A stretch of DNA of 64,000 nt from Bacteroidota bacterium (GCA_016722375.1 JADKJG010000008.1:33081-97080), one strand, 5' to 3'. Counted from the stretch's first letter, positions 3,158 through 64,000 are shown. Numbers and translations are program-made. Notes: generated by a model not told the origin, from the letters alone.

Positions 3158-3982
3158 TTACTTACCTCTTTTCTGCATGATGAACTGAGAAGAACTCTTC
3201 TTAGGCGCCCGAGTTTTATAACCCTTAGCCTTTATTCCTCTGCGAGAGCGAGGATGTCCTCCTGATGCACGACCTTCACCTCCTCCCATCGGGTGATCCA
3301 CAGGGTTCATTGCTACCGGTCTTGTTCTTGGTCTGCGACCTAACCAGCGTTTACGCCCTGCTTTGCCGAGGCTTTGAAGATTATGGTCAGCGTTGGAAAC
3401 ACTGCCGATAGTGGCCACACACTGTAATAATAATTTTCTTGATTCGCCGGAAGGCAATTTGATAACGGCATAGCGTTCTTCGCGAGCTAAAAGTTGTGCA
3501 GAGCCACCGGCGCTTCTCACAATGACTCCACCTCTTCCGGGATGCAATTCAATATTGTGTATGATAGCTCCTAAAGGAATTTCTGCCAGAGGCAATGTGT
3601 TTCCTACCTCAGGGGCAACCTTTGTTCCTGAAATCACTTTCTGTCCTACCTTCAAACCATTCGGAGCCAAGATGTATCTCTTTTCGCCATCAGCATAAGC
3701 AATCAGGGCGATAAACGAGGTGCGAATTGGATCATACTCAATAGAGGTGACTGTTCCAGGAACGTCAAATTTATTTCTCTTGAAGTCAATAATTCTGTAA
3801 CGCTTCTTATGGCCACCACCCATATAGCGCATGGTCATTTTACCTTCGCCGTTACGACCACCACTGCTCTTGTGCGGAGCTAAAAGGCTTTTTTCAGGTT
3901 TGTTAGTGGTGATTTCATCGAACGTTAGAAGTTCTGTGAACCTCATGCTCGGGGTGGTAGGGCGATATTTTTTAATTCCCAT
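3158..3982 (-). CDS. rplB: 50S ribosomal protein L2
   Basis: 274 aa with [21 protein letters not shown] and [16 protein letters not shown]. Confidence 0.98.
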
Positions 3983-4069
3983 TTTATTCTTCTTTTAATC
4001 CTTTTTGTCTTTTCAGTGGTAGGATGTCCACTATAGTTAAAGAATACTTTTTGTTCTGCTGTTTATCGT

Positions 4070-4366
4070 TTATACGCTTCCGTAGAAATCAATAGCTTCT
4101 CCCTTCTTCAAGGTCACTACTGCTTTCTTATAAGAAGGCTTCATGCCAGAGGCAACACCTTGCTTTGTGAAACGAACTTTCTTTTTACCCGGATTCACCA
4201 AGGTATTTACGGCTTCTACCTGTACATTATAGGTAGTTTCAACCGCCTTCTTGATTTCCAACTTGTTGGCATCCTTCGCTACGCGGAAAACATACTTGCC
4301 TGCTTTTTCGCCGCTTTTGGTTGACTTTTCGGTTATAACCGGTCTGATTAAAATATCTATTGCCAT
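4070..4366 (-). CDS. rplW: 50S ribosomal protein L23
   Basis: 98 aa with IRPVITEKS...YVFRVAKDANKLEIKKAVE. Confidence 0.95.
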   Translation of the reverse strand: MAIDILIRPVITEKSTKSGEKAGKYVFRVAKDANKLEIKKAVETTYNVQVEAVNTLVNPGKKKVRFTKQGVASGMKPSYKKAVVTLKKGEAIDFYGSV

Positions 4367-4387
4367 GATGGTTGTCTCCTTACTTGA

Positions 4388-5020
4388 TTAGTTTTTAGCG
4401 AAATTAGTTTCTATGGACTTTACTGCTCCTTCGCTCAACACCAGCTTTTTGCAGTTCATCACATCATATATGTTCAGGTTCGTTGCTTCGGTCACCTTAA
4501 GTGTAGGGATATTGCGGGCCGAAAGAATAGTATTCTTATCGGCACTATCCATTACAAACACGCTTTTCACGCCGTTCAGTTTTAATCCCTTTACTACCGC
4601 TGCAAAGTCCTTTGTTTTAGGAGCAGAAAAATTAAAATCTTCTACTATTATCAGATTGCTATCCTTCGCTTTGTAGGTCAGGGCGCTTTTTCTGGCAATG
4701 TCTTTCACCTTTTTATTCACCTTCAAAACATAGTCATGAGGTTTAGGGCCGAATGCGCGACCACCCCCTTTCAATCCGGGAGCTTTCATCGAACCGCGAC
4801 GGGCACCACCGGTGCCTTTCTGGCGAAATGCTTTCTTGGTGGTACGCGATACCTCCCATTTTTCCTTGGACTTGTGCGTTCCCTGACGTTGTGCAGCCAT
4901 GTAGGACTTCACACTCAGATATACCGCGTGGTCATTAGGTTCTATACCGAATATATCGTCCGAAAGATTGATTTCTCTTCCGGTTTCAGCACCGTCTTTG
5001 TTTAAAACTTTTACCTTCAT
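4388..5020 (-). CDS. rplD: 50S ribosomal protein L4
   Basis: 210 aa with QGTHKSKEKWEVSRTTKKAFRQKGTGGARRGS; first gene of the five-gene block. Confidence 0.96.
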   Translation of the reverse strand: MKVKVLNKDGAETGREINLSDDIFGIEPNDHAVYLSVKSYMAAQRQGTHKSKEKWEVSRTTKKAFRQKGTGGARRGSMKAPGLKGGGRAFGPKPHDYVLKVNKKVKDIARKSALTYKAKDSNLIIVEDFNFSAPKTKDFAAVVKGLKLNGVKSVFVMDSADKNTILSARNIPTLKVTEATNLNIYDVMNCKKLVLSEGAVKSIETNFAKN

Positions 5021-6611: not shown

Positions 6612-6760
6612 CCTTAAGGAAAAGAAGGAATTCCTTAAAGGAAAGTCTCTTTTCCTTAAAGGAAAATTACTTTCTCTTAATGATTGATACACGATTCCTT
6701 AAAGGAAAGCCTCCGTTCTTTAAGGAATTGCAGGAATCTCTTAAGCAAAAAGGAGATTTG
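6612..6760. repeat. 21-bp phased degenerate tandem array (CCTTAA word)
   Basis: CCTTAA-like anchors start at 6612, 6633, 6654, 6675, 6697, 6718 and 6739. The array contains the palindromes TTCCTTAAGGAA and AAGGAATTCCTT. Confidence 0.8.
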
Positions 6761-7107: not shown

Positions 7108-7560
7108 ATGACAGCGAAACGCAATTATTTTACTGGAGATAGTCAACCGGAGTTAGGGTTTAAGCTATTTTTAAAGTACTGTTCCATTGGCCTTTTGGTG
7201 TTTTTATTTTCAGTAGGACAGCGCTCTGCGTTTGCTAATAGTAGCACTGAAGAGTCCAACATAAAGATGGATTTAGGAGTGCTTTTGTCGGGACACTCTA
7301 TTAGTATCCTGAGTTCACCACTTCATCTGCCGTTTGAATCAACCCCGAATCCCCAACCTCAGTATGATCCCACTGAGAAGGATAGTGAAGATGATTTGGG
7401 TAGTGATTGTACTCTAGCTATAGGATGCCAGACACTGGAGGGGGTGTTAATCCCTCCTTCTGGAAGAATTGTATTTTCATTAGTAGTAGATTCTTTACAA
7501 AACCGATCCACGGTTCCTCTTTTCATACTCTACCATTCTTGGAAGAGTTTCCTCTCCTAA
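7108..7560 (+). CDS. hypothetical protein upstream of the RND operon
   Basis: 150-aa ORF with one hydrophobic segment (CSIGLLVFLFSVG). No recognisable family, so coding status is uncertain. Confidence 0.3.
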   Translation: MTAKRNYFTGDSQPELGFKLFLKYCSIGLLVFLFSVGQRSAFANSSTEESNIKMDLGVLLSGHSISILSSPLHLPFESTPNPQPQYDPTEKDSEDDLGSDCTLAIGCQTLEGVLIPPSGRIVFSLVVDSLQNRSTVPLFILYHSWKSFLS

Positions 7561-7687
7561 TTTTCTAATTCTCCAGAGATTGTTTTACATGGTACGCTCC
7601 ATGTATTTAATGATCTGTATAGTACTCTGCTATGTAGCAGAGACTGATGTTCTAATAAGTCTTTCGTCAAAACAAATCAAAAGTAAA

Positions 7688-8773
7688 ATGAAGAGTGTCG
7701 TAATGCTCCTGAGCCTTTCAACTATGTTGGTGTTCACAAGCTGTAATAATGAAAAACATATAAAGGAAGCAGAAGCTAAATTTCTGGTTACCAGTCCGGT
7801 TCAAATGGACACGATGATTTATCAGGATTACGTGTGCCAGATTCATGCCATCAGCCACATTGAAATAAGGTCGCAGGAAAGGGGTTACCTGCAGAACGTT
7901 TACGTGGACGAAGGACAGAATGTAAAAAAGGGACAGAAGATGTTTCAAATTATGCCTTTGATATACGAGGCAGAAATGGAAAAGGCAAAGGCCAATGTAA
8001 GTTTTGCTGAGATTGAATATCAGAATACCAAGAATCTTGCTGACAGCAACATCGTGTCGAAGAATGAATTGGCATTGGGTAAAGCAACATTAGATAAAGA
8101 GAAAGCAGAGTTGGCTCTGGCTCAGGCACATTTGGCATTTACAGATATACGCGCTCCCTTCGATGGCATCATGGACCGCTTTTATCAGCGACTGGGCAGT
8201 TTAGTAGATGAAGGTGAATTGCTCACCACTCTTTCAGATAACAGCAAAATGTGGGTGTACTTCAATGTCCCCGAATCGGAATATCTGGATTACGCTTCCC
8301 GCACCGCAAAAACAGGCAAGCAGCAGGTAAAGCTGCGTATGGCCAACGGTGAAATATTTTCACGCGAGGGAACGGTAGAAACGATAGAGGCGGACTTTAA
8401 CAATGAAACCGGAAACATTGCTTTCCGTGCCACTTTCTCTAATCCCGATAAAATCTTGCGACATGGAGAGACGGGCACCATACTGATGCCGACGCACCTT
8501 AAAAACGCCATCATCATTCCTCAAAAGGCAACTTTTGATATCCTAGATAAGAAGTTCGTTTATGTGCTGGATAACAACAACGTGTTGAAGTCAAAGCAAA
8601 TTACGATAGCTCAGGAAATGCCCCATCTATATGTAGTTAGCTCAGGCCTCGACGTTAACGACAAAATCCTTCTAGAAGGATTAGGCAAGGTAAAAAACAA
8701 TGAAAAAATAGAAACTGAGTTTGTGTCTTTTGAAAAGGCGTTATCCGACCTAAATAATTTACACGCCGAATAA
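7688..8773 (+). CDS. RND efflux periplasmic adaptor (membrane fusion protein)
   Basis: The likely start is the internal ATG at 7688, which gives a lipoprotein signal (MKSVVMLLSLSTMLVFTSC). HlyD/AcrA-like coiled-coil hairpin and beta-barrel regions (IRAPFDGIMDRF). Confidence 0.88.
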   Translation: MKSVVMLLSLSTMLVFTSCNNEKHIKEAEAKFLVTSPVQMDTMIYQDYVCQIHAISHIEIRSQERGYLQNVYVDEGQNVKKGQKMFQIMPLIYEAEMEKAKANVSFAEIEYQNTKNLADSNIVSKNELALGKATLDKEKAELALAQAHLAFTDIRAPFDGIMDRFYQRLGSLVDEGELLTTLSDNSKMWVYFNVPESEYLDYASRTAKTGKQQVKLRMANGEIFSREGTVETIEADFNNETGNIAFRATFSNPDKILRHGETGTILMPTHLKNAIIIPQKATFDILDKKFVYVLDNNNVLKSKQITIAQEMPHLYVVSSGLDVNDKILLEGLGKVKNNEKIETEFVSFEKALSDLNNLHAE

Positions 8774-8799
8774 GGCAAGAACCAAAAAACAAAGAAAAG

Positions 8800-11700
8800 A
8801 TGTTTAATAAATTCATTCAAAGGCCGGTTCTTGCCATTGCCATATCTATTGGAATAGTCTTCATGGGGCTATTAGCCATCACGACACTACCGGTAGCCCA
8901 GTTCCCGCAAATCGCTCCTCCGCGAGTCACTATCTTCATTGAATTTCCGGGATCTAACGCCGATGTATTAGTTAAATCTACTTTAACTATTTTGGAAAGA
9001 GCCATCAATGGTGTTCAGGGAATGCAATACATCCTGTCGGATGCCACCAGTGCCAGCGAGGCGAGTATTGATATAGTATTTGAACCCGGAACGGACCCGA
9101 CCATTGCCGCAGCCAGAGTAAAATCGAGAGTGGATCAGGTGATGACCAACCTTCCTCCCTTGGTGCAACGGGAAGGTGTTATCATCAAACCGCTGCAGCC
9201 CAGCATGCTGATGTACCTGAATCTTTACAGCACAGAAAAAGGTACGGACGAAAAATTTCTATTCAACTATGCCAACACATATATCTTGCCTGAAATCCAG
9301 CGGATCAGTGGTATGGGTATGGCCGAGGCGATTGGTAGCCGTGCTTTTGCTATTCGTGTCTGGTTAAATCCCGACAGAATGAGGGCTTATAAAATTTCGG
9401 CTGACGAAGTTTTGAAAGCAATTGACGAGCAAAGTGTACTGGCACGACCGGGAAGAGTAGGATTGAGTTCCGGGAAAACCGCACAGTCTCAGGAGTATGT
9501 TTTTACTTATAAGGGATGGTATAACACTCCGGAACAGTACCAGGAAATCATCCTCCGGGCCAATGCACAGGGAGAAATACTGAAACTTAAAGATATTGCT
9601 CAAGTAGAGGTAGGAAGTGAATTCGTTGACATCTACTCCAACAAGGATGGTTATCCGTCTGCTTCGTTGGTGCTCAAACAAAACCCGGGCAGTAATGCTA
9701 ACAAGGTGATTGAGGATGTAAAAGCAAAATTGGTAGAGCTAAAGAAAGATTTTCCTGCCGGGATGAATTATGAAATCAACTACGACGTTTCAAAATTCGT
9801 GGATGCTTCCATTGAAAAAGTGCTTCATACACTATTGGAAGCTTTCATACTAGTAGCCTTGGTAGTCTTCATTTTTCTCGGCGATTGGCGATCTACCCTT
9901 ATTCCCATCTTGGCTGTACCGGTATCTCTTATCGGCACGTTTGCCTTCATGCAAATGTTTGGACTGAGCATCAACCTAATCACACTGTTTGCGCTGGTTT
10001 TGGCTATTGGTATCGTTGTGGACAATGCCATTGTGGTCGTGGAAGCGGTGCACGTTAAAATGGAGGAAGAGAATTTATCTCCGTACAAAGCATCGAAAAA
10101 AGCACTGGTAGAAATAGGCGGTGCGATTATCGCCATTACCTTGGTTATGACTGCAGTTTTTGTTCCGGTAGCATTTATGTCCGGACCGGTAGGGGTATTG
10201 TACCGTCAGTTTTCGATTGCCATGGCAACTGCCATTATCCTCTCTGGAGTTGTGGCCCTCACGTTGACACCTGTTCTATGCGCCATCCTATTAAAAAACA
10301 CGCATGGGCAGCCTAAAAGTAAAACACCAATCAGCATTTTTCTTGACTGGTTCAACAAAGGCTTTGGAAAAGTTACTGGAAAATATGCAGGCCTGCTCAA
10401 ACTGATAGTCAACCGGAAAGTAATCACCTACGGCATATTGGTGGCTTTTGCTTTCGGGATTGTAGGCATCAATAAAATTCTTCCCGCAGGCTTTATTCCT
10501 AACGAAGATCAGGGACAGATATATGCTATTATTCAAACGCCGCCGGGAACAACTCTTGAACGGACCAATGAAATAGCAAGAAGTCTTCAACTCATTGCCA
10601 AAAAGGTGGATGGCGTTCAATCCGTAACAGCGTTGGCAGGTTTCGAAATCCTCACGGAGGGAAGAGGTTCTAATGCCGGAACCTGTTTGATAAATTTGAA
10701 AGACTGGTCGGAACGAAAACATTCAGTAAAGCAAGTCATTAAAGAGCTGGAAGAAAAAACAAAAGACCTCGCGGCCAATATTGAATACTTTGAACCACCG
10801 GCTGTACCCGGCTATGGTACGTCTGATGGTTTCTCTCTTCGCTTATTAGATAAAAACGGAGATGTAGATTATCAGGCGTTTGATAAAGTGAATAGCGACT
10901 TTGTGGCTGCGTTGAGAAAAAGAAAAGAATTGAGCGGATTGTTTGCGTTTTATTCTGCCAAGTATCCGCAATACGAAATAACCATAGATAACGAGTTGGC
11001 CATGCAAAAGGGAGTTACTATAGGAAACGCCATGGAAAACCTGAATGTCATGATTGGCAGTACCTACGAACAGGGATTTATCCGGTTCAATAATTATTAT
11101 AAAGTTTACACCCAAGCCGGTCCCGAATTCAGAAAACAACCTTCAGACCTACTGAATATGTTCGTTAAAAACGACCAGGGAGAAATGGTTCCTTATTCAG
11201 CGTTTATGAAAATAACCAAGACGCAGGGCCCCAATGAAATATCTCGATACAATCTCTATATCTCTTCTCTAATTAACGGAACCCCCGCCGCTGGATACTC
11301 TTCGGGGGATGCCATTAAAGCGATACGCGAAGTGGCTAAAGAATCCTTGCCTCGCGGATATGACATTGCTTGGGAAGGCCTTTCGTATGATGAGGCACGC
11401 AGAGGAAATGAAGCGCTTTACATATTTCTGGTGGTACTGTTCTTCGTTTACTTAATTCTCGCGGCGCAGTATGAAAGTTTTCTTTTGCCGTTTGCGGTCA
11501 TTCTTTCTATTCCTCCCGGAATTTTTGGCTCGTTCGTTCTATTAAAAACTATGGGATTAGCCAATGATGTTTATGCGCAGGTGGGATTGATTATGCTCAC
11601 CGGATTGTTAGGTAAAAATGCGGTGCTGATCGTGGAGTTCGCTGTTCAAAAACACAGTCAGGGGGCAACGGTACTGGATGCCGCCATTGAAGGCGCACGG

Positions 11701-13984: not shown

Positions 13985-14017
13985 AAACTACAAAAGTCTT
14001 AGAGACTTTTGTAGTTT
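13985..14017. other. perfect 15-bp stem hairpin
   Basis: AAACTACAAAAGTCT, a TAG loop, then AGACTTTTGTAGTTT. It lies in the ORF-free gap downstream of the minus-strand gene ending at 14092. Confidence 0.7.
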
Positions 14018-14091
14018 GAAGTTTACGCGCAGTGGGGGCTTTCGTTGGCTTTAGCTTTGACAAATTTAGAATTTGTCAGAGTTGGATGTCG

Positions 14092-15546
14092 CTATTCCAT
14101 CAGATACTTAACATCCTTAACAATAATCCAAGCATCTTCATCTGTAATTTCTTTATAGAATAATTTTTCATTAAAGTATCCAAACACGTTTATCTGTTTA
14201 TCTGAAATCATTACTTTCCTTTGTAAAATGTAAGATTGGGGAATATATTCAAAATAATAAGTTGGACCTTTGGAAAGACCCCCAACCATTATAACTTTTT
14301 CAATATTGGAATAAACAATGTCAATCCAATTACTTGACGGACTATTATTAAAATGAGTACTGTCAAGGCCTGTCAAACGGACGCTATTATGTTTATTGAA
14401 GAAATAAAGAGTTGGGTCAACGTTAAAAACAAAAAAAGGCTGGTTTATCATATACCCGAAATATCCAGTATACGCAATTCGATATTTTGAGCTACTATTC
14501 TTAATGGGAAAATAATCTGGGTAGCTTAAATTAAATACGTTCTCAAGTTTTAGCCCATCTTTTGTAAAGTAATATTGAGCAATTAAAGAATCATTATTCT
14601 CTGAACTTGTCATCATCAATAATGTATCACCTCGGACAAAAATAGTATTGAGATAATTAAAAACATTGCCACTTCCAGGAATTGAATAATGTAATGAATA
14701 TACCTTTTCAACAGTAAGGTCTAAACTTAATTGGGCTATATACGGAGCGTGATACCATCCTACATCCCCATTTGGACTTGCCTTTTCAATTAAAAACGTT
14801 AGAGGCAAATAAATTTTTTGGTTTTTAAAAATTGGCGGCATGATATTAACCCTATTACCCATTTTTGAATCTATTCGATCTGTTGCAAGAACGTTGCTTG
14901 CTTGCTCATTTGAGTCTAGCATTACACATTCTTTAATAAAAAGTTGAATGGAATCTCTTAGGAAGTTAAAGTTATATGTCTTAACTAATTTTCGTTTCTC
15001 AACATCTATACAATATGTATTTGAATTCAGGTCGTTTGTAATGTAGATGTAGCCGTCGTCTGCAAGATTAAATTTTGTTCGTTTCGTGCCAACGTATTTA
15101 CTTACATCAATGGTGTCATCAATAAAAGATGAAATAATATCCACAATAGTATCACCTACTAATGAATTTTTAAAATCAGAACTCCAAAGAATTTTTTCAT
15201 TTTTCAGAATAAATACCTTAGAAACTATCTCTGGGTTTAAACAAGAAAATAAACTGTCATTAATTATTACTGTATCAATAGGCGATATTTTGCCAATTTT
15301 AGTAGAGACAAATTCGGTCTTTATTCTTTTAGGCACATTTCCTAATAGGAATACTACAGGATACTTTCCATATAATTGTTGATAAGCATTCGATGCGCCT
15401 ATATAACAATTAAAGCAATCGTTACCATAAATAGTAAAAACTACGGATACTGGCTTTTCTTTTCTCAGATTGAAATCTAAGCAATCTGACTGTCCATAAA
15501 TTGAAAGACCAGTAACCAAAAAAAAATAAAAAAATACACTCCTCAT
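14092..15546 (-). CDS. secreted hypothetical protein: CxxC-containing N-terminal module plus beta-propeller-like body
   Basis: 484 aa with a signal peptide (MRSVFFYFFLVTGLSIYGQ) and VVFTIYGNDCFNCY (beta-strand then CxxC, thioredoxin-like). The remainder is beta-rich. The coding sequence is visibly AT-rich. Confidence 0.6.
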   Translation of the reverse strand: MRSVFFYFFLVTGLSIYGQSDCLDFNLRKEKPVSVVFTIYGNDCFNCYIGASNAYQQLYGKYPVVFLLGNVPKRIKTEFVSTKIGKISPIDTVIINDSLFSCLNPEIVSKVFILKNEKILWSSDFKNSLVGDTIVDIISSFIDDTIDVSKYVGTKRTKFNLADDGYIYITNDLNSNTYCIDVEKRKLVKTYNFNFLRDSIQLFIKECVMLDSNEQASNVLATDRIDSKMGNRVNIMPPIFKNQKIYLPLTFLIEKASPNGDVGWYHAPYIAQLSLDLTVEKVYSLHYSIPGSGNVFNYLNTIFVRGDTLLMMTSSENNDSLIAQYYFTKDGLKLENVFNLSYPDYFPIKNSSSKYRIAYTGYFGYMINQPFFVFNVDPTLYFFNKHNSVRLTGLDSTHFNNSPSSNWIDIVYSNIEKVIMVGGLSKGPTYYFEYIPQSYILQRKVMISDKQINVFGYFNEKLFYKEITDEDAWIIVKDVKYLME

Positions 15547-15557
15547 CAGAATAGATT

Positions 15558-16263
15558 TTATTCAGGGTGAATAATACTTGAAATAGCTTCCAAACTTGTT
15601 AGCCCACCCATAGATCCCCTAGGAATTTTTGCATAACGAATGCACCAACTGGGACTGGGTGTACATTGGATATAATAAAACTCGCTTCCCGGTTCATGAA
15701 CATAGCTGCTAAGGGTTCCATAAACTTGAATTTCTTGAGCAGGGCCATACAAACTTTTGTAATGATTATATTCAGTTTCTGTCATTGCTTGGTGATATAT
15801 TGTGTTGCGGAGAGAAATATAGCTATTAGCTGATTCAGGTACAGGATTATCAGATGCTACACTAACAGAAATAGATACATACCCTGTGTCTCCAATTAAA
15901 GATAAAAAGTCAGATGGGAAATTTGCTATCTGATTAATCTTAAAACAAATTTCTTTAGAAGGTAAGCATTCAATAATAACTGTTGCATCGCCAGGTCCTG
16001 ATATATTATTTAATCTGCCAGGGATATCAACAGGGGGTTGAAGCAATTCCTGCTTGACCGTCATTTAAAAATACGCCTGTTGATATAAGTGAGGTTCGTG
16101 TTGGGCACTGCTGCATAATATTACAAGCAGAATAATATGTTGTATTAATACTTGGCACGTAAACTTGTTGGACTATTTGTGACGCTCCGTCTTCTTCAAG
16201 CCCTTGTGCCTTTAATATTACAATCCCTAATAAGAATACGGAAATCAATGCTCTTGTTTTCAT
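15558..16263 (-). CDS. secreted Cys-containing hypothetical protein, split across two overlapping frames
   Basis: ORF 16027..16263 carries the signal peptide (MKTRALISVFLLGIVILKAQG). ORF 15558..16064 continues in another frame with a 38-nt overlap. This is either one frameshifted gene or two genes. Confidence 0.4.
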
Positions 16264-17072: not shown

Positions 17073-17128
17073 GTTAAATTGTGGTTTTTTGGTTAAAAAA
17101 TAGAGAATCGAGATGTTCTGAAAAGAGA

Positions 17129-17422
17129 GAATGAAGCATTCATTTTGAAGAATGAGTGATTCATTTTGAGAAATGCCGCGCCAATTTCGAAAATGGAGGC
17201 CTCCATTCCTGCTCGCGAGTTTCTCGCGAGTACTCGCGCGTTGCTCGCGAGCAGGAATGAGTGACTCATTCCTTGAAATGAGCGGCTCATTCTTGGAAAT
17301 GAAGCCTCGCCAAGCAGAAATGAAAGACCCGCAAGCACTCGCGGGACTCTCGCGAGGCCTCGCGAGAGTCCCGCGACCACTCGCGAGCGACTCATTCTTT
17401 GAAATGCGAAAGCTATTTCGTG
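17129..17422. repeat. 21-bp phased palindromic array (GAATGAG and CTCGCGA words)
   Basis: Fourteen consecutive exact 21-nt units. There is a 34-bp perfect palindrome at 17341-17374, and a 12-bp inverted repeat CCTGCTCGCGAG (17208-17219) with CTCGCGAGCAGG (17244-17255). Confidence 0.9.
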
Positions 17423-29266: not shown

Positions 29267-29321
29267 TTAGCTGTGAGCTATTAGATTTTAGAAATTAGAT
29301 TGGGACGATACATATCCTGCC

Positions 29322-29765
29322 TTACTCAAATGATTGAATAAGATTGGAAGCCATTTTCATATTTGAGTTATAGCTGTCTAAATTGTCAATTTGAAAATTT
29401 TCACCATCCCAATTTTGTAAAATATTTCGGAGTTGTCCCAAGAAGGCGATCGATGAAACCGCAACGTAATGCCCTTTCACAACCTGACCAGCGCCAATCA
29501 ATTCCAGCTTGCTGATAATTTTTCTAATATCATCAAACGTTCTTCCATATTCGGCGAGCAAATGATTTGTGGGCCTGTCGTTAGCTAATAATGTCAGCAA
29601 TTGTTCAATATACACCTCTCGCTTATTTAAAGTCTTTCCTTGAGTCATACTTTTAATTGTTTGACTCAAAATTTCACTTTCGTCGAAATGCTTTCGATTG
29701 GATTCAGCAGCAATCTTGGATAAAAGTCTCGATTTTTTAAAGAAAAACATTAACGATCTTATCAT
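29322..29765 (-). CDS. hypothetical protein (island gene, downstream of the cyclase-like gene)
   Basis: 147-aa AT-rich ORF, predicted mostly helical. No TM segment, no signal peptide and no recognisable cNMP-binding motif. Confidence 0.5.
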   Translation of the reverse strand: MIRSLMFFFKKSRLLSKIAAESNRKHFDESEILSQTIKSMTQGKTLNKREVYIEQLLTLLANDRPTNHLLAEYGRTFDDIRKIISKLELIGAGQVVKGHYVAVSSIAFLGQLRNILQNWDGENFQIDNLDSYNSNMKMASNLIQSFE

Positions 29766-29913
29766 CTAATTAAGCATGTCCTATTAAATAGTATCTAATA
29801 CATCGAGGTTACACAAAATAAGAAAAATTGCAGGCCATTGTCGGTGACGTTTGCACTGCTATTGTTTTTTTAAACCTAAACGATACGCATGTATAAACTT
29901 CATTTTTCTATGA

Positions 29914-30750
29914 TTAAATTTTTTGAAAAGCGATTGTTCCAATTGTTTCTTTTGGTTTCGTTTTTTGATCGTTGAGATACCAAGTCAGAACATCCAAAAG
30001 CCATTCATATTTTTCTTTGGCGTGGGAGTCATTTTTAGCCTCCATTAACTTAATCTGAATTTTACAAAAGTTTATACCACGACTTACGAAACCTTTATAA
30101 ACCTGATCGGCATCAAGATTTTCGTAACCTATATTTAACTCCTTTTCAAAACCGGTTGGATTTAGAAAATACACCCCCTTTGTATCCATTAACAAGCTTT
30201 TGCTGATCGCCTTATTGACGAGATCACCTCGCAGCTGTAGATTATTTTTTACTTTTTCAATTAATGCTTCAGCAATTACTATCCTTGGGTAGATTGCTTT
30301 CTTAGTTTCTAACTCATAGGCATCTGCTAAGGCTGGAGAAAAAATCATTTTCTCATCAGAATAATCATCCCCAAAAGATATCCCGCCTCGGATTGGAAAT
30401 TCATTATCAAGCATTATAGAAAAATAGGCGCGAGCAAACAGAATGCAGTTTGTAAAGGCATCGCCAAAGGATAATTCTGAACCCTCCTGATATGAAAATG
30501 ATGCATAAAGATTGTCGGAAAATAATTTGTATGATGTATTTACTTCGAGTTTAGCCTGGTCCAGTGTATCCTTAAATAAATTAAGGGTATTTATTCCTTG
30601 ATCAAGAGCCTCTATTAATTTTTTTAAGGAGTAGTCACCTTCATGGACGGAGTTATCTAAAATGCTTTTGAAACCTAAAATGTCAGCGTGAAGAACTATA
30701 GCTTTCCGTAAAGCTCCCTTTGAGCCCATATATTTCCTTTTGATTATCAA
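29914..30750 (-). CDS. class III nucleotidyl cyclase-like (CHD fold) protein with an unknown C-terminal extension
   Basis: 278 aa. Ordered motifs are AIVLHADILGFKS (metal Asp, cf. F.DI.GFT), YKLFSDNLYASF (second Asp, cf. K.IGD..MA.F), FPIRGGISFGD (cf. RIGIH.G) and SPALADAYELE (cf. G..VN.A.R.E). Confidence 0.5.
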   Translation of the reverse strand: MIIKRKYMGSKGALRKAIVLHADILGFKSILDNSVHEGDYSLKKLIEALDQGINTLNLFKDTLDQAKLEVNTSYKLFSDNLYASFSYQEGSELSFGDAFTNCILFARAYFSIMLDNEFPIRGGISFGDDYSDEKMIFSPALADAYELETKKAIYPRIVIAEALIEKVKNNLQLRGDLVNKAISKSLLMDTKGVYFLNPTGFEKELNIGYENLDADQVYKGFVSRGINFCKIQIKLMEAKNDSHAKEKYEWLLDVLTWYLNDQKTKPKETIGTIAFQKI

Positions 30751-30803
30751 TCATTCCAAAGAAACCAAAATTAAGTTCTTCACTGGATTAAACTTATAAT
30801 CCT

Positions 30804-31350
30804 CCCCATTCGCCCCCAAATCAACGCGCTTCCACCAGCGCCAAACGCGTTTATGGCTCAGCTCAATGCGGTAATAGTAGAGATTTCGCCTTGGTTGGTG
30901 ATTACCTTTCCAATATTAATATAAGAACCAGCGCCTGTTTGCCGCAGGCAGGTCAACAACCATCTGTTTATTCCTGTTGGTGAAACCAACACCAACGGGG
31001 CGAAGAAAAATTACTTCCCATCCTGATTGATTGAGCCGCTGGTTTGATTAAAACAGCGGAGGTTTTGATTAGAAAAGCGGATGGTGTGATTGATAAAGCA
31101 AATGCTGTGATTAAGATAGCGGAAGATATGATTATGAATGCCGCTCTTATGATTAAGAAAGCGGCATTCTTGATTAATATAGCGAATGCTTTAATCACTA
31201 TAGCGGCTACTATGATCAAGATAGCGAAAGATGTAACCGATATAACGGCTGATTTGATTGATATAGCGGGGAAATTGATTAAGAATCGGGGGATTATTAT
31301 TGATATTCGGGGGAAAATGATTGATATTCCGGGGATTATTGTTGATAATC
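30804..31350. repeat. composite 21-bp phased array: ACGCG-word head, then the GATT word
   Basis: The head has ACGCG-like anchors at 30824, 30845 and 30866. GATT anchors then fall at 31025, 31046, 31067, 31088, 31109, 31130, 31151, 31172, 31193, 31214, 31235, 31256 and 31277, and after a 25+17 nt slip at 31319. Confidence 0.85.
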
Positions 31351-31526
31351 GTTTGTGGCAAAGGTGTTTATGAGCATAGTGCCCAAATTAGATAAAATAG
31401 AAAGTAGAGAGGAGATTTGACAACTTTCAAAAAGTTCTGCATCATTTCTTCCTTGATTTTAAGAAAGGCTCTTTCGGTTTTTTCATTTGCCTTTTCGCTG
31501 ATTCCGGATAAGTCAAAAATTATAAT

Positions 31527-31955
31527 TTAGGATTTAATGGTTTTAAGAGGGTTTTGACCCTTATCATGCAATTCCCCTATTTCATCTACTGTCAAATTTG
31601 AGATTCTTTCTACTTCCATTTTCTCATTCTCATCACAATCTATATGCCCAGCAAATACCTTGTTTTGTTTTATCCAATCGAGATGCCATGAATCTTCCCA
31701 ATACCTTGTGCAAATAGTGAAGTCAGTTGAATAATTTCTTTTTTCATCATAGAACAATCCATTCTCAACAAGTTCGTCAATATCAAATTCATCTGGATTC
31801 CATCTTGAAATGGAGAATATTTGATTATCCTCTTGATTGAAAGGCTCATTTTGGGTGATGTACTTTTCCCGGAACGCCTCAATTCCTCCAATATACTTGC
31901 TTGCTATCGCCTTCTTATCAACAACAAGATTTGAGGGGTGTAGGTAGATTGGCAT
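31527..31955 (-). CDS. hypothetical protein (island gene between the two arrays)
   Basis: 142-aa intact AT-rich ORF, acidic and Trp-rich (RYWEDSWHLDWIKQ). No family recognised. Confidence 0.5.
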   Translation of the reverse strand: MPIYLHPSNLVVDKKAIASKYIGGIEAFREKYITQNEPFNQEDNQIFSISRWNPDEFDIDELVENGLFYDEKRNYSTDFTICTRYWEDSWHLDWIKQNKVFAGHIDCDENEKMEVERISNLTVDEIGELHDKGQNPLKTIKS

Positions 31956-32056
31956 TTAGGGAATTTATTTTTTCTACTTCTGCGCTATTCTCAGCCGTGG
32001 TTGGCGTTTAGCATTCCATAAAAATAAAATTATTGCATACTTCACCAACCATCACA

Positions 32057-32410
32057 CCCCATTTCCCCCCCCAAATCAACGCACTTCCACCACCGCTAAG
32101 CGCGTTGATGGCTCAGCGCAATGCGTTATTGGCGGAAAGTAGCGTGCTACTGGCTAAATGTAACGCGTTAAAAATGCGGTGACAACGCGCTAACGGCTCC
32201 GCGCAACGCGCTATCGGCTGAGCTAAACGTGTTACCACAGGAGTTAAACGCACTACTGGCGGAAATCAACGCACTTGCACCAGCCGTAAGTGCGCTTAAA
32301 TTGAAAATCAACGCGCTTGCCTCGGCCATAAGTGCGCTTAAATTCAAAATAAGCGCTCTTAAATCAAAAATAAGCGCGCTGAAAGGGAAAATTAGCCGAT
32401 TTATCCCCGC
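32057..32410. repeat. 21-bp phased array (ACGCG/GCGCT word)
   Basis: Sixteen anchors: 32079, 32100, 32121, 32142, 32163, 32185, 32206, 32227, 32248, 32269, 32290, 32311, 32332, 32353, 32374 and 32395. The head (32057-32137) is about 85 percent identical by eye to 30804-30884. Confidence 0.9.
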
Positions 32411-32594
32411 GGGGCTTCCTTTTTCAAAACAATTAAAAGAAGAAAAGAACCTCTAAAGGAATCCTATGGACTTGCGGCAGTAAATCAAAGGCCGGCAGGT
32501 TGGGAAATTTCTCCCAATCCTCAAAAATTTTCCCTTTAGTTTCCTCCCGTAAAACAAAAACCCCTCTTTCATAGGAGAAAGAAGGGTTTATTTG

Positions 32595-32667
32595 TGGTGT
32601 GGGAGGGAATTGAACCCCCGACACATAGATTTTCAGTCTATTGCTCTACCAACTGAGCTACCGCACC
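32595..32667 (-). tRNA. tRNA-Phe (GAA)
   Basis: The 73-nt cloverleaf was read by hand: acceptor GGTGCGG/CCACACC (one C-A mismatch), D arm GCTC-AGTTGGTA-GAGC, anticodon stem ATAGA/TCTAT with loop CTGAAAA, T arm GGGGG-TTCAATT-CCCTC and discriminator A. CCA is not encoded. Confidence 0.9.
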
Positions 32668-49031: not shown

Positions 49032-49344
49032 TAATCCGTTTTTGCGGCAGGCTTGGTTATTTCATCAACAGGCTTGACTATTCCTGCGGCTGACTTCCCT
49101 ATTTTCGTGGTGAATTGTCCTATTTCTCTAACAGACTTCCCTATTTTCATGGCAGAATGTCCTATTCCCATCGTCAAATTACCTATTTCCGTGACGGACT
49201 TAGGTGTTTCTGCAACGGACTTAGGTATTTCTGCGGTGGACTTCCCTATTTTCGTGGCGACTTGTCCTATTTCTGTCACGGACTTGCCTAATTCCGTCGC
49301 GGTTTTGCCTCATTCTGCGACAGAATGAGTCTGTGTATTTGCGG
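49032..49344. repeat. 313-bp element: 21-bp phased array (CCTATTTC word) with conserved ends
   Basis: Anchors fall every 21 bp from 49056 to 49308 (CCTATT at 49098, 49119, 49140, 49161, 49182 and so on). It is collinear with 63683-63995 at a constant offset of 14651. Confidence 0.92.
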
Positions 49345-49920: not shown

Positions 49921-50047
49921 AAAATCAAAGGTGATGGCGAAATTAATTCTAAAGAGTTAATTGCCATGCTAGTGTATTCTATTAAATCAACCAAACAAAA
50001 TCTAAAATGAATTTCACTTTTCACTTTTCACTTTTCGTTTTTCATTT

Positions 50048-50377
50048 ATGAGAATAGTGGAGATATACCGCAACGGAACTTTGGCTGGAACACTGACAGA
50101 AGAAAATCGTCAGCATTTTGTGTTCAGGTATGATGACAATTATTTTAATGATTCAGACAAACCGGCTATCAGTTTAACGCTTCCAAAAACACAAAAAGAA
50201 TATAGCAGCAAATTTCTTTTTCCATTTTTCTTTAATATGCTTAGTGAAGGGGTAAACAGGAAATTACAAAGCACACAACTGAGGATTGATGAAGAGGATA
50301 ATTTTGGTTTGCTGGCTGCAACCGCCCAATATGATACGATAGGAGCCGTAACTGTAAAACCAATAGAGGCAAAATGA
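50048..50377 (+). CDS. hipS: HipA N-terminal-subdomain protein (HipS-like)
   Basis: 109 aa: GTLAGTLTEE..FVFRYDDNY, PFFFNMLSEG, IGAVTV. The stop overlaps the next start (ATGA). Confidence 0.8.
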   Translation: MRIVEIYRNGTLAGTLTEENRQHFVFRYDDNYFNDSDKPAISLTLPKTQKEYSSKFLFPFFFNMLSEGVNRKLQSTQLRIDEEDNFGLLAATAQYDTIGAVTVKPIEAK

Positions 50378-51381
50378 ATTTGGATGAATTGAAATATTGT
50401 CCCGGAACTTTGGCTGAAGGTTTTACTACTTACAGCCCGGGTTGCTTACGGAATATGTTTAATGGTAAAAAGGTAAATCATGTTTTGCCATATGAACAAC
50501 CACAGCAAAGCGAAGAGGTTGCGGAGCAGTTCATGGAAAATCGCAAACGCATATCCATATCGGGTGTGCAAGAAAAATTGAGTTTGCTTCTTGAAAAAAA
50601 TCTATTGCGTTTGACAAAAGAAGGAGAACAGGGAACCTACATACTCAAACCAATACCAAAAGATTTAAAGAAGGTTGATAAGGTTCCGGCTAACGAACAC
50701 CTAACCATGCAAATAGCAAAACAGGTTTATGGATTGAATACTGCAGAAAGTGCTATGGTTTTTTTCAAAAATGGTTCGCCTGCCTACATCACCAAAAGAT
50801 TTGATGTAAAGGGAGATGGCAGCAAATGGGGCAAGGAAGATTTTGCAACACTTGCCGGTAAAACAAAAGACAATGCCGGAGCAAACTTCAAATATGAATA
50901 CAGTTACGAAGAGCTTGGGCAACTGATACAAAAATTTGTTCCGGCATGGCGGGTAGAAATTGAGAAGTATTTTTCATTGGTAGTTTTCAATTTTTTGTTT
51001 TCAAATAGCGATGCTCACTTAAAAAATTTCTCTTTGCTTGAATCATCCAAAGGCGATTACTTGCTTAGTCCTGCGTATGATTTAGTAAATACTAAACTGC
51101 ATGTGGACGATTCAGACTTTGCTTTGGATAAAGGATTATTTTTGGATAGCTTTAAAAGTGAGCGATATAAAAAAAACGGGCACCCTGCTAAAACTGATTT
51201 CAAGAAATTTGCCAAACGAATAGGAGTTGCCGAAACCAGGGTAGAAAAATTGCTGAATCCGTTTTTAGAAAAGCAATCTTTAATGGAAACCTTAGTTAGC
51301 CGTTCATTTTTAAGCGATGCCAACAAGAGAGGATACTTACTGATGTATATCACAAAAAGGAACTACCTGACCGCAGATTAA
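50374..51381 (+). CDS. hipT: HipA-family Ser/Thr kinase lacking N-subdomain 1 (HipT-like toxin)
   Basis: 335 aa: ISISGVQEKLSL (Gly-rich loop region), catalytic SDAHLKNFSLL, LSPAYDLVNT. Confidence 0.85.
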   Translation: MNLDELKYCPGTLAEGFTTYSPGCLRNMFNGKKVNHVLPYEQPQQSEEVAEQFMENRKRISISGVQEKLSLLLEKNLLRLTKEGEQGTYILKPIPKDLKKVDKVPANEHLTMQIAKQVYGLNTAESAMVFFKNGSPAYITKRFDVKGDGSKWGKEDFATLAGKTKDNAGANFKYEYSYEELGQLIQKFVPAWRVEIEKYFSLVVFNFLFSNSDAHLKNFSLLESSKGDYLLSPAYDLVNTKLHVDDSDFALDKGLFLDSFKSERYKKNGHPAKTDFKKFAKRIGVAETRVEKLLNPFLEKQSLMETLVSRSFLSDANKRGYLLMYITKRNYLTAD

Positions 51382-51463
51382 AAGATTTTATTGATACCCA
51401 TGATTAATGAAGAATACATACCTGATTATGAATAAGTGATTTGAAACAAAAAACCAAAAAGTA

Positions 51464-52156
51464 ATGGCATTTGATTTTTACTCTTTTGTTCATTTTATAT
51501 TTGCCGGATTTATTGCACTTTTTCCAGTTGTCAATCCTCTTGGAAGTGCTTTTATCGTAAATCCCTATTTTTCTGGACTAGATAGACAAGACAGGGTAAA
51601 TGCTATAAAACGAATTGCATTATATGCCTTTGCTATATGCTTATTTACTTTGCTAACTGGGCATTGGATATTAGAATTGTTTGGAGTAACTGTTCCAATT
51701 ATTCAATTGGCAGGTGGAACGATGATTTGCAAAACAGGATGGGATTTCCTTGCGCCGTCAAAACAAAGTAATACAGAGAAGCCAATAAACGAGAGTGAAA
51801 ATTTAAGTCAACAAATAGAAAGCAAACTATTTTACCCAATTACTTTTCCGCTTACCACCGGAGCTGGTACCATATCCGTTCTCTTCACATTAAGCGCACA
51901 TGGTGCAAATAAAAACATAGCACAGTATTTAATAAATACCAGTGCCATACTGATTGCTGTAGCAGCCATGTGCTTCTTGGTGTTCATTTGTTATGTCAAT
52001 GCAGATAGACTAATTAAGTATTTAGGCTCGCAACGGGAGAGAATAGTCAATAATATTATGGCCTTTTTAATCTTTTGTGTTGGACTGCAAATAGCTGCTG
52101 AAGGCATTACTCAACTAATCGTACAGTTATCACGGGTTTTGCGTCAGGAGGGTTGA
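51464..52156 (+). CDS. MarC-family (UPF0056) integral membrane protein
   Basis: 230 aa with six hydrophobic segments: ALFPVVNPLGSAFIV. Confidence 0.8.
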   Translation: MAFDFYSFVHFIFAGFIALFPVVNPLGSAFIVNPYFSGLDRQDRVNAIKRIALYAFAICLFTLLTGHWILELFGVTVPIIQLAGGTMICKTGWDFLAPSKQSNTEKPINESENLSQQIESKLFYPITFPLTTGAGTISVLFTLSAHGANKNIAQYLINTSAILIAVAAMCFLVFICYVNADRLIKYLGSQRERIVNNIMAFLIFCVGLQIAAEGITQLIVQLSRVLRQEG

Positions 52157-63682: not shown

Positions 63683-64000
63683 TAACCTGTTTTTCCGGCA
63701 GGTTTGTCTCTACCCGCAATAAACCAGACTATTTTTACGGCAGACTTGCCTATTTCTGATACAGATTTCCCTATTTCCACGGCGAGTTTGCCTATTTCCA
63801 TCTCAGAAATAGCTATTTCCGTCGCAGACTTCCCTATTTCCGGGACAGACTTACCTATTTCTGCGCCGGACTTAGGTATTTCTGAGATGGACTTCCCTAA
63901 TTCTATGATGGACTTCCATATTTTCGTCACGGACTTGCCTATTTCTGCCGCGGTTTTGCCTATTTCTGTGACAAAAACAGTCTGGATATTTGCGAAAAAA
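63683..64000. repeat. second copy of the 313-bp CCTATTTC-word element, reaching the window edge
   Basis: Anchors fall every 21 bp from 63728 to 63959. Both ends match the 49032-49344 copy. Confidence 0.92.

Follow-up and report, generated by a model that had tools for sequence, protein, structure and literature searches.

A solitary cyclase-fold gene of a Bacteroidota bacterium belongs to the family of the phage toxin PanT

The gene studied here lies on the minus strand (29914..30750) of a 64,000-nucleotide (nt) stretch of DNA from a Bacteroidota bacterium (GCA_016722375.1, JADKJG010000008.1:33081-97080), the whole of which is called the window below. Judged by its sequence, its product is a homologue of PanT(Bur. 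phage), a toxin encoded by a Burkholderia prophage, and it is predicted to adopt the fold of class III nucleotidyl cyclases; there is good support for both assignments, the family and the fold. The reading that we favour, at about even odds (probability roughly 0.5), is that the gene is a solitary PanT(Bur. phage)-type member encoding a palm enzyme that arrests growth as an abortive-infection or addiction-type effector. The gene adds to a known toxin family a new member without an antitoxin, ordinary in itself and not a new kind of system.

The connection to PanT runs through another member of the family (P0041), which in a tblastn search matches P2-like Burkholderia prophages. In phi52237 the matching gene is gp8 (YP_293707.1), found directly downstream of gp9 (DUF4065), between the integrase and portal genes and adjoining a second toxin-antitoxin (TA) pair (locus L013). 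The gp9-gp8 pair is the type II TA system PanA-PanT(Bur. phage) (Kurata et al. 2022, PMC8832971). A profile of the window family matches YP_293707.1 at 82.6 bits (E 1.5e-27 in the search space of a single sequence, roughly 1e-18 when scaled to the size of a library of 1.8 billion proteins), and the window protein and PanT align directly in BLASTP with 26% identity and a pairwise E of 7e-10. PanT retains all the invariant residues; the aligned pairs (window/PanT) are D23/D57, D79/D115, R121/R150, E148/E186, P155-R156/P193-R194, and K247/K280. The two proteins are of the same size class, have the same cyclase-like core and share the motifs DILGF, FSD, RGG..G, F.PA..AY..E, and A..PR as well as a C-terminal Lys, and neither has a Pfam or CDD domain. 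They differ in two respects: PanT is extended by 45 residues at its N-terminus, and the W of the KY.WL motif is missing from it. Their settings differ too: the window gene has no upstream DUF4065/PanA gene and does not lie in a prophage, and toxicity has been shown only for the phi52237 protein.

PanT was described as a putative nucleotide cyclase, having no CDD domain and a 97% HHpred probability to adenylate/guanylate cyclases (PMC8832971). Its expression abolishes the growth of E. coli, with transcription mainly inhibited and then translation, while ATP is unchanged and GTP slightly down (PMC8832971). It induces the RelA-dependent synthesis of guanosine tetraphosphate (ppGpp), yet its toxicity is independent of RelA, and PanA neutralises it through complex formation (PMC8832971). 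We found no later literature, past 2022, on this cyclase-like toxin.

The open reading frame (ORF) at 29914..30750 (stop codon 29914-29916) was confirmed as real by the ORF listing and encodes 278 amino acids (aa) when read from a TTG at 30750, the numbering used here. The true start is likely the ATG at 30729 (M8), which gives 271 aa: the annotation of the source metagenome-assembled genome (MAG) begins there (P0001, 100% identical), and most aligned homologues start just ahead of the "KAIV" strand. An initial annotation of the window had recognised four cyclase motifs in this protein, and we find all of them where it put them, at residues 22 (ADILGFK), 75 (KLFSDNLYASF), 120 (IRGGISFGD), and 138 (SPALADAYELE); some 130 residues follow the last motif, close to its estimate of about 120. 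It also held that the protein has no transmembrane (TM) segment, and indeed no TM-like segment was found in the protein or in either of its neighbours by Kyte-Doolittle analysis in 19-residue windows, where no value exceeds 1.1. Scans with Pfam, NCBIfam, and PADLOC models returned no meaningful match for the protein itself and none at all for the two flanking ORFs of 147 and 142 aa, in agreement with the earlier view that no sensor or phosphodiesterase is recognisable nearby.

An AlphaFold2 model built from an alignment of 25 homologues (A1) has a mean predicted local distance difference test score (pLDDT) of 87.4 and a predicted TM-score (pTM) of 0.88. The elements follow in the order beta1, alpha, alpha, beta2-beta3 hairpin, alpha, beta4, alpha, and a helical region of ~120 residues comes after them. 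The cyclase-homology (palm) core, with its beta-alpha-alpha-beta-beta-alpha-beta-alpha succession, spans residues ~14-160 (30271..30711, minus strand) on the evidence of AlphaFold2, Foldseek, and hhalign. Foldseek returned 51 PDB matches at E<=0.001 (best E 9.8e-6), and the best 50 of these 51 are all class III adenylyl/guanylyl cyclase or cyclase-like entries, each with a probability of 1.00. The matches include CyaC (1wc3), soluble guanylyl cyclase (sGC, 2wz1), Ma1120 (4wp9), mammalian adenylyl cyclase (1azs), and Rv1900c (1ybt), and their target-normalised TM-scores are ~0.5-0.64. No GGDEF or Cas10 palm entry is among the best 50, and the hairpin motif of the window protein is F-S-D, not GGDEF/GGDD. 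The class III cyclase fold that the initial annotation proposed is borne out, as is the minimal, stand-alone character of the protein. Other libraries gave less: the BFVD viral fold library yielded only weak matches to giant-virus cyclases or response regulators, and PDB sequence searches, made with the protein itself and with two profiles, stayed below threshold (E>0.5), the first cyclase motif alone aligning.

The residues could be mapped by hhalign onto a class III reference profile made of seven genuine "adenylate/guanylate cyclase domain" segments taken from plasmids. The alignment is colinear over 151 columns (residues 11-174), with E 0.0012 and a probability of only 19%, computed without secondary-structure scoring. 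D23 (codon 30682..30684, minus strand; motif DILGF) takes the place of the first metal-binding Asp (F-x-D-x-x-G) and D79 (codon 30514..30516, minus strand; motif FSD in the beta2-beta3 hairpin) that of the Asp of the "GD" hairpin, making it the equivalent of the second metal-binding Asp. R121 (codon 30388..30390, minus strand; motif RGGIS.G) corresponds to the strand Arg of "R-x-G-x-H-x-G", and P155 to the "PG" past helix alpha4. Both metal-binding Asp residues are kept among homologues, as the initial annotation would have it (D23 in 141/141, D79 in 142/142); F77-S78-D79 as a whole and R121 are likewise found in 142/142. K75 is invariant in the close subfamily, and its counterpart in the class III cyclases used for comparison is a Lys four residues ahead of the "GD" Asp. 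The motif set and fold together are far more than chance would give, because the model matches class III cyclases, the profile alignment is colinear, and D23 and D79 are conserved.

The correspondence stops at helix alpha4. A142 and E146 of the window protein, in the segment L141-A142-D143-A144-Y145-E146, occupy the places of the Asn and Arg of the class III "V-N-x-A-x-R", and these two positions are variable across the family, neither column being conserved at >=60% in 142 diverse members. Helix alpha4 and its loop (residues 138-156, SPALADAYELETKKAIYPR; 30283..30337, minus strand) hold instead the family-invariant E148, P155, and R156. The alignments thus point to a protein that has the class III fold and metal site and is missing the canonical transition-state Asn/Arg pair. 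Like Spirulina CyaC (1wc3), M. avium Ma1120 (4wp9), human sGC (2wz1), and the class III family PF00211 generally, it has the fold, the two metal Asp residues, the beta4 Arg, and the motif order; it departs from them in having A142/E146 for the alpha4 Asn/Arg (G-x-x-V-N-x-A-x-R), in lacking sensor domains, and in continuing past the core into a helical C-terminal domain of ~120 residues that contains an invariant Lys. This extension (residues 161-278; 29917..30270, minus strand) has no recognised fold and is modelled by AlphaFold2 with helices at 161-170, 176-183, 214-238, and 242-259. The last of these contains the near-invariant K247-Y248-x-W250-L251, with K247 present in 138/139 members and W250 in 132/138. 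PF00211 itself does not match the window protein at E<=1 and is touched only weakly by two of 91 family members (best E 0.0086).

The family is very large. A word-indexed sequence search found only 47 relatives, whereas an exhaustive profile search against clusters at 50% identity found 12,823 (E<=1e-3), 8,141 (E<=1e-10), and 599 (E<=1e-30), in Bacteroidota, Bacillota, Proteobacteria, plasmids, and prophages. From other genomes, the closest relative shares 50% identity with the window protein. In 142 diverse members, the positions that are invariant or nearly so are D23, L25-G26-F27, F77-S78-D79, R121-G122, G127, F137, E148, A152, P155-R156, K247, and W250, and the window copy retains every family-invariant residue. 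No Pfam, NCBIfam, or PADLOC model exists for the family; the protein matches phrog_23933 (function not assigned) with E 1.1e-23, and the names that members bear in their sources are nearly all "hypothetical protein", one UniRef homologue being a "Guanylate cyclase domain-containing protein". Among the best 150 profile matches, 89 are 200-400 aa long, like the window protein, and 47 reach >=550 aa. The latter are fusions (~570-660 aa; P0068, P0069, P0072, P0074, and 43 more) in which the cyclase-like domain is C-terminal, behind an N-terminal domain of ~300 residues that is conserved and has the motifs FKRKLK..LY.YNSD and KNPK.YF. This domain has no relatives in Pfam, PADLOC, NCBIfam, or the PDB sequences, and a profile search found no split or stand-alone version of it in the examined loci. 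Pfam, NCBIfam, and PADLOC scans of ten family members of 400-660 aa gave nothing useful, and neither the window protein nor 10 fused members match any PADLOC model, those for Pycsar/PycC included, at E<=1.

The assignment of an anonymous Bacteroidota gene to the PanT-type family matters for the size and obscurity of that family and not for any unusual feature of the window locus. Most members are "hypothetical proteins", and the sole member that has been studied is a potent toxin. The family retains the two-metal site and replaces the class III Asn/Arg with an invariant Glu, Arg, and Lys of its own, and about a third of the best-scoring relatives bear the large N-terminal domain without known relatives. 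The conserved residues and domains offer starting points for finding the product of the enzyme and the control of the solo copies.

No antitoxin accompanies the window gene. A tblastn search for PanA over the whole window gave nothing below E 0.5, and the neighbours have no DUF4065 match. The other solo homologues inspected likewise have no annotated or Pfam-recognised PanA alongside, and most family members are without a recognisable antitoxin. An ORF of 142 aa located upstream (31527-31955, minus strand) was considered as a candidate antitoxin and rejected: it lies beyond a repeat array at a distance of 776 nt, and none of the other loci has it. No match to it came from Pfam, NCBIfam, PADLOC, or PHROG, and relatives of it are absent from the retrieved loci.

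How such a protein might work can be proposed from its relatives. As in class III cyclases, it probably dimerises and binds a nucleoside triphosphate with two Mg2+/Mn2+ ions, and it would then probably catalyse a nucleotidyl transfer or cyclisation. Without the class III Asn/Arg pair, this chemistry need not be the classical synthesis of a 3',5'-cyclic nucleoside monophosphate (cNMP). If PanT is a guide, the product or modification would shut down transcription and then translation and thereby arrest growth, and the protein could then serve as an abortive-infection or addiction-type effector. Since no PanA or cognate antitoxin is present at the window copy, some other means of restraint is required; we speculate that this is the protein's own C-terminal helical domain, acting by auto-inhibition or by sensing a trigger, or, less favoured, low expression. 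CapRel(SJ46) is reportedly a fused toxin-antitoxin defence protein, and its toxin domain, like the window protein, is of a family otherwise neutralised by Panacea-type antitoxins. The analogy is a functional one only, in that the solo window protein could, quite speculatively, be self-inhibited by a phage-sensing C-terminal domain; in fold and chemistry the two are unrelated, RelA/SpoT-like in one case and a cyclase palm in the other. A more elaborate proposal, which we hold to be rather unlikely, makes the solo members one-protein immune sensors, in which the KY.WL domain restrains a non-canonical palm until a phage or plasmid cue arrives, and a nucleotide product or nucleotidylation new to the cyclase fold then stops transcription. 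The active site of the palm would in that case consist of D23, D79, R121, E148, R156, and K247, with no Asn/Arg.

Several observations weigh against a growth-arresting effector. No antitoxin is detectable, and the loci have no neighbour in common. A toxin under no restraint would be expected to disappear, and its persistence without an antitoxin therefore implies either that the subfamily is non-toxic or that control is of another kind. The identity to PanT is low, in a very large family whose functions may have diverged, and PanT itself leaves ATP unchanged and GTP only slightly lower. In the window, no integrase or recognised defence gene adjoins the cyclase-fold gene, and the close Bacteroidota homologues have varied neighbours, mostly housekeeping or anonymous genes and not obvious defence islands.

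The initial annotation had suggested that the gene forms a variant signalling module with a new effector, encoded by the downstream gene of 147 aa (29322..29765, minus strand). This would be a Pycsar-like arrangement of two genes, in which infection triggers a cyclic nucleotide that the 147-aa protein senses. The two genes are co-oriented and 148 nt apart, both are low in GC content, and Pycsar cyclases share the fold; like Pycsar and Pucsar relatives (bioRxiv 10.64898/2026.08.12.744502), the window protein is a small, stand-alone cyclase-fold protein with relatives in defence islands. The pair itself, however, is not conserved. Neither the 147-aa nor the 142-aa protein has a homologue in any of 14 distinct loci that contain a cyclase-like homologue (from L001-L008 and L013-L022), and a cyclase-like gene is found in none of four retrieved loci with a 147-aa homologue, where the gene adjoins hisIE, glyoxalase genes, other housekeeping genes, or anonymous genes. 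When 14 immediate neighbours, drawn from eight loci, were all compared with one another by BLASTP, no shared family emerged. The adjacency is an accident, as the genes co-occur in none of these other loci, which the initial annotation had itself named as evidence against its proposal. The 147-aa protein has 36 homologues, many of them 70-77% identical over the full length (motif GAGQ.VKGHYVAVSSIAF); compared with the 50% identity of the cyclase-fold protein to its nearest homologue in another genome, this indicates that the two genes have different histories. The source MAG annotates the downstream gene at only 108 aa (P0204), and the 147-aa reading is probably right because homologues conserve the whole length from M1. 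A confident model of it is all-helical (mean pLDDT 86.7) and has no PDB fold match (best E 3.2), and the protein has no Pfam model. The initial annotation was correct in seeing no cNMP-binding, TIR, or TM features in it: there is no Pfam, NCBIfam, or PADLOC match and no TM-like segment. With no PADLOC PycC or effector match, no cNMP-binding, TIR, or three-TM effector nearby, no conserved partner, and no class III Asn/Arg pair, a Pycsar-like module is largely refuted and very improbable. PanT, moreover, is a cyclase-fold relative that is itself the toxic component and not an upstream signal generator. The fallback offered by the initial annotation, that the fold has been recruited for another activity, fits better in view of the PanT homology and the missing Asn/Arg pair.

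The palm may also have a toxic or defensive role and yet not be a cyclase, acting in the manner of a nucleotidyltransferase or polymerase to modify RNA, tRNA, or protein or to make a linear nucleotide product. The variable Asn/Arg positions, with E148, R156, and K247 invariant instead, are consistent with this, as are the unchanged ATP, the slightly lower GTP, and the RelA-dependent ppGpp seen with PanT. RelA responds to deacylated tRNA, and its activation by PanT could, speculatively, fit damage to tRNA or translation. PanT nevertheless hits transcription ahead of translation, and the top fold matches are all cyclases and not polymerases, GGDEF domains, or Cas10; we hold this alternative to be rather unlikely. 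Unlikely, in our estimation, is a non-toxic signalling enzyme, that is, a minimal cyclase that makes cAMP, cGMP, or another messenger for receivers encoded elsewhere. A solo gene without an antitoxin, close homologues amid housekeeping genes, the Lys-equivalent K75 that is invariant in the close subfamily, and homologues in metal-resistance clusters of two unrelated plasmids would agree with such an enzyme, but it would have neither a sensor or regulatory domain nor the catalytic Asn/Arg of true cyclases, and PF00211 is effectively unmatched in the family. The sole characterised relative is, furthermore, a toxin, and the patchy distribution is tied to mobile elements, plasmids, and prophages, with low GC in the gene. 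Quite improbable is that the gene is an inactive remnant, a toxin gene orphaned by the loss of its antitoxin and tolerated as dead or silent. The partner gene is indeed absent, and degenerate repeats surround the gene in its small low-GC stretch, but the ORF is full length, D23, F77-S78-D79, R121, G122, E148, P155, R156, K247, and W250 are all intact, and at least 13 further solo homologues from its subfamily are preserved just as well.

The settings of the relatives bear on a growth-arresting, PanT-type role in different ways. A close-subfamily profile search for loci returned six in genomes, six in metagenomes, and none in viral contigs. In one locus an integrase adjoins the close-subfamily cyclase-like gene (L019). 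More distant members are found in typical defence or mobile-element surroundings: the gene lies between insertion sequence (IS) elements alongside a methyltransferase and an MjaI-type endonuclease (L020), behind an MmeI/Eco57I-type restriction-modification gene and a 177-aa gene without an assigned function (L021), or behind Eco57I-type, SMC/AAA, and HATPase genes, with an unassigned 155-aa gene ending 12 nt ahead of it and a downstream overlap with a "Beta protein" gene (L022). Further members are found straight behind AbiEi/AbiEii (L034), alongside BglII endonuclease and HNH genes (L035), and alongside DUF4238 and IS66 (L036).

Homologues are carried by 89 plasmids. On Agrobacterium pAtLMG292b (L029, 3806-4795) a 329-aa member lies immediately 3' of repABC and 5' of two integrases, a placement that would suit a plasmid-stabilisation gene. 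Further Rhizobium and Sinorhizobium plasmids have matches at record coordinates 886-1611 or 3968-4693. On two unrelated plasmids, pAP43-OXA58-NDM1 of Acinetobacter pittii (L030) and one of Hymenobacter (L032), the homologue is within copper/heavy-metal resistance clusters; both clusters include a P-type ATPase, DUF305, and heavy-metal-binding proteins, and the former also CueR. These settings may be a coincidence of plasmid cargo or may hint at a role other than defence. A Chitinophagales MAG (L015) has tandem paralogues at 7208-7984 and 7989-8801, with the second starting 2 nt past the stop of the first and family-profile E values of 9.5e-14 and 9.2e-95, respectively. This tandem pair is suggestive of a heterodimer, as in the pseudo-heterodimeric class III cyclases.

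In the window, the cyclase-fold gene is within a 3.3-kb interval that extends from ligA to the 3' end of a tRNA-Phe gene (32594-32667, minus strand), the sole Rfam match in 28.5-33.5 kb. The GC content is 35% in the cyclase-fold gene, 42% in the window, and 47% in ligA. Over 29300-32600 it falls to 0.31-0.37 in the lowest 400-nt windows, compared with ~0.42-0.49 in the flanks, and this looks like a small acquired stretch. Neither an integrase nor a direct repeat of the tRNA-Phe 3' end, of the kind that marks a classical integrated island, was found. A 61-nt direct repeat (30813-30873 and 32068-32128, 89% identical) encloses a repeat array and the 142-aa ORF, and is possibly the trace of a small unit that was inserted or duplicated.

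The array enclosed by this repeat is one of several. Degenerate tandem arrays with a strict period of 21 nt (or 42 nt) occur at six sites in the window at least (6631-6680, 17128-17387, 31014-31347, 32184-32396, 49078-49315, and 63729-63973). The 142-aa ORF has one of them on either side, in the region that separates the cyclase-like gene from tRNA-Phe, and no Rfam match to the arrays was found in 28.5-33.5 kb. The arrays give rise to spurious ORFs with heptad repeats on both strands, for example at 31044-31373 and 32229-32456 (both plus strand). A cleaner 21-nt array (9.6 copies, 94% matches) is found ~850 nt upstream of a cyclase-like homologue in another locus (L005, 3951-4152). Elsewhere in the window, the segments 14001-16000 and 50001-52000 are low in GC as well (0.325 and 0.363, compared with ~0.42-0.45 in the remainder).

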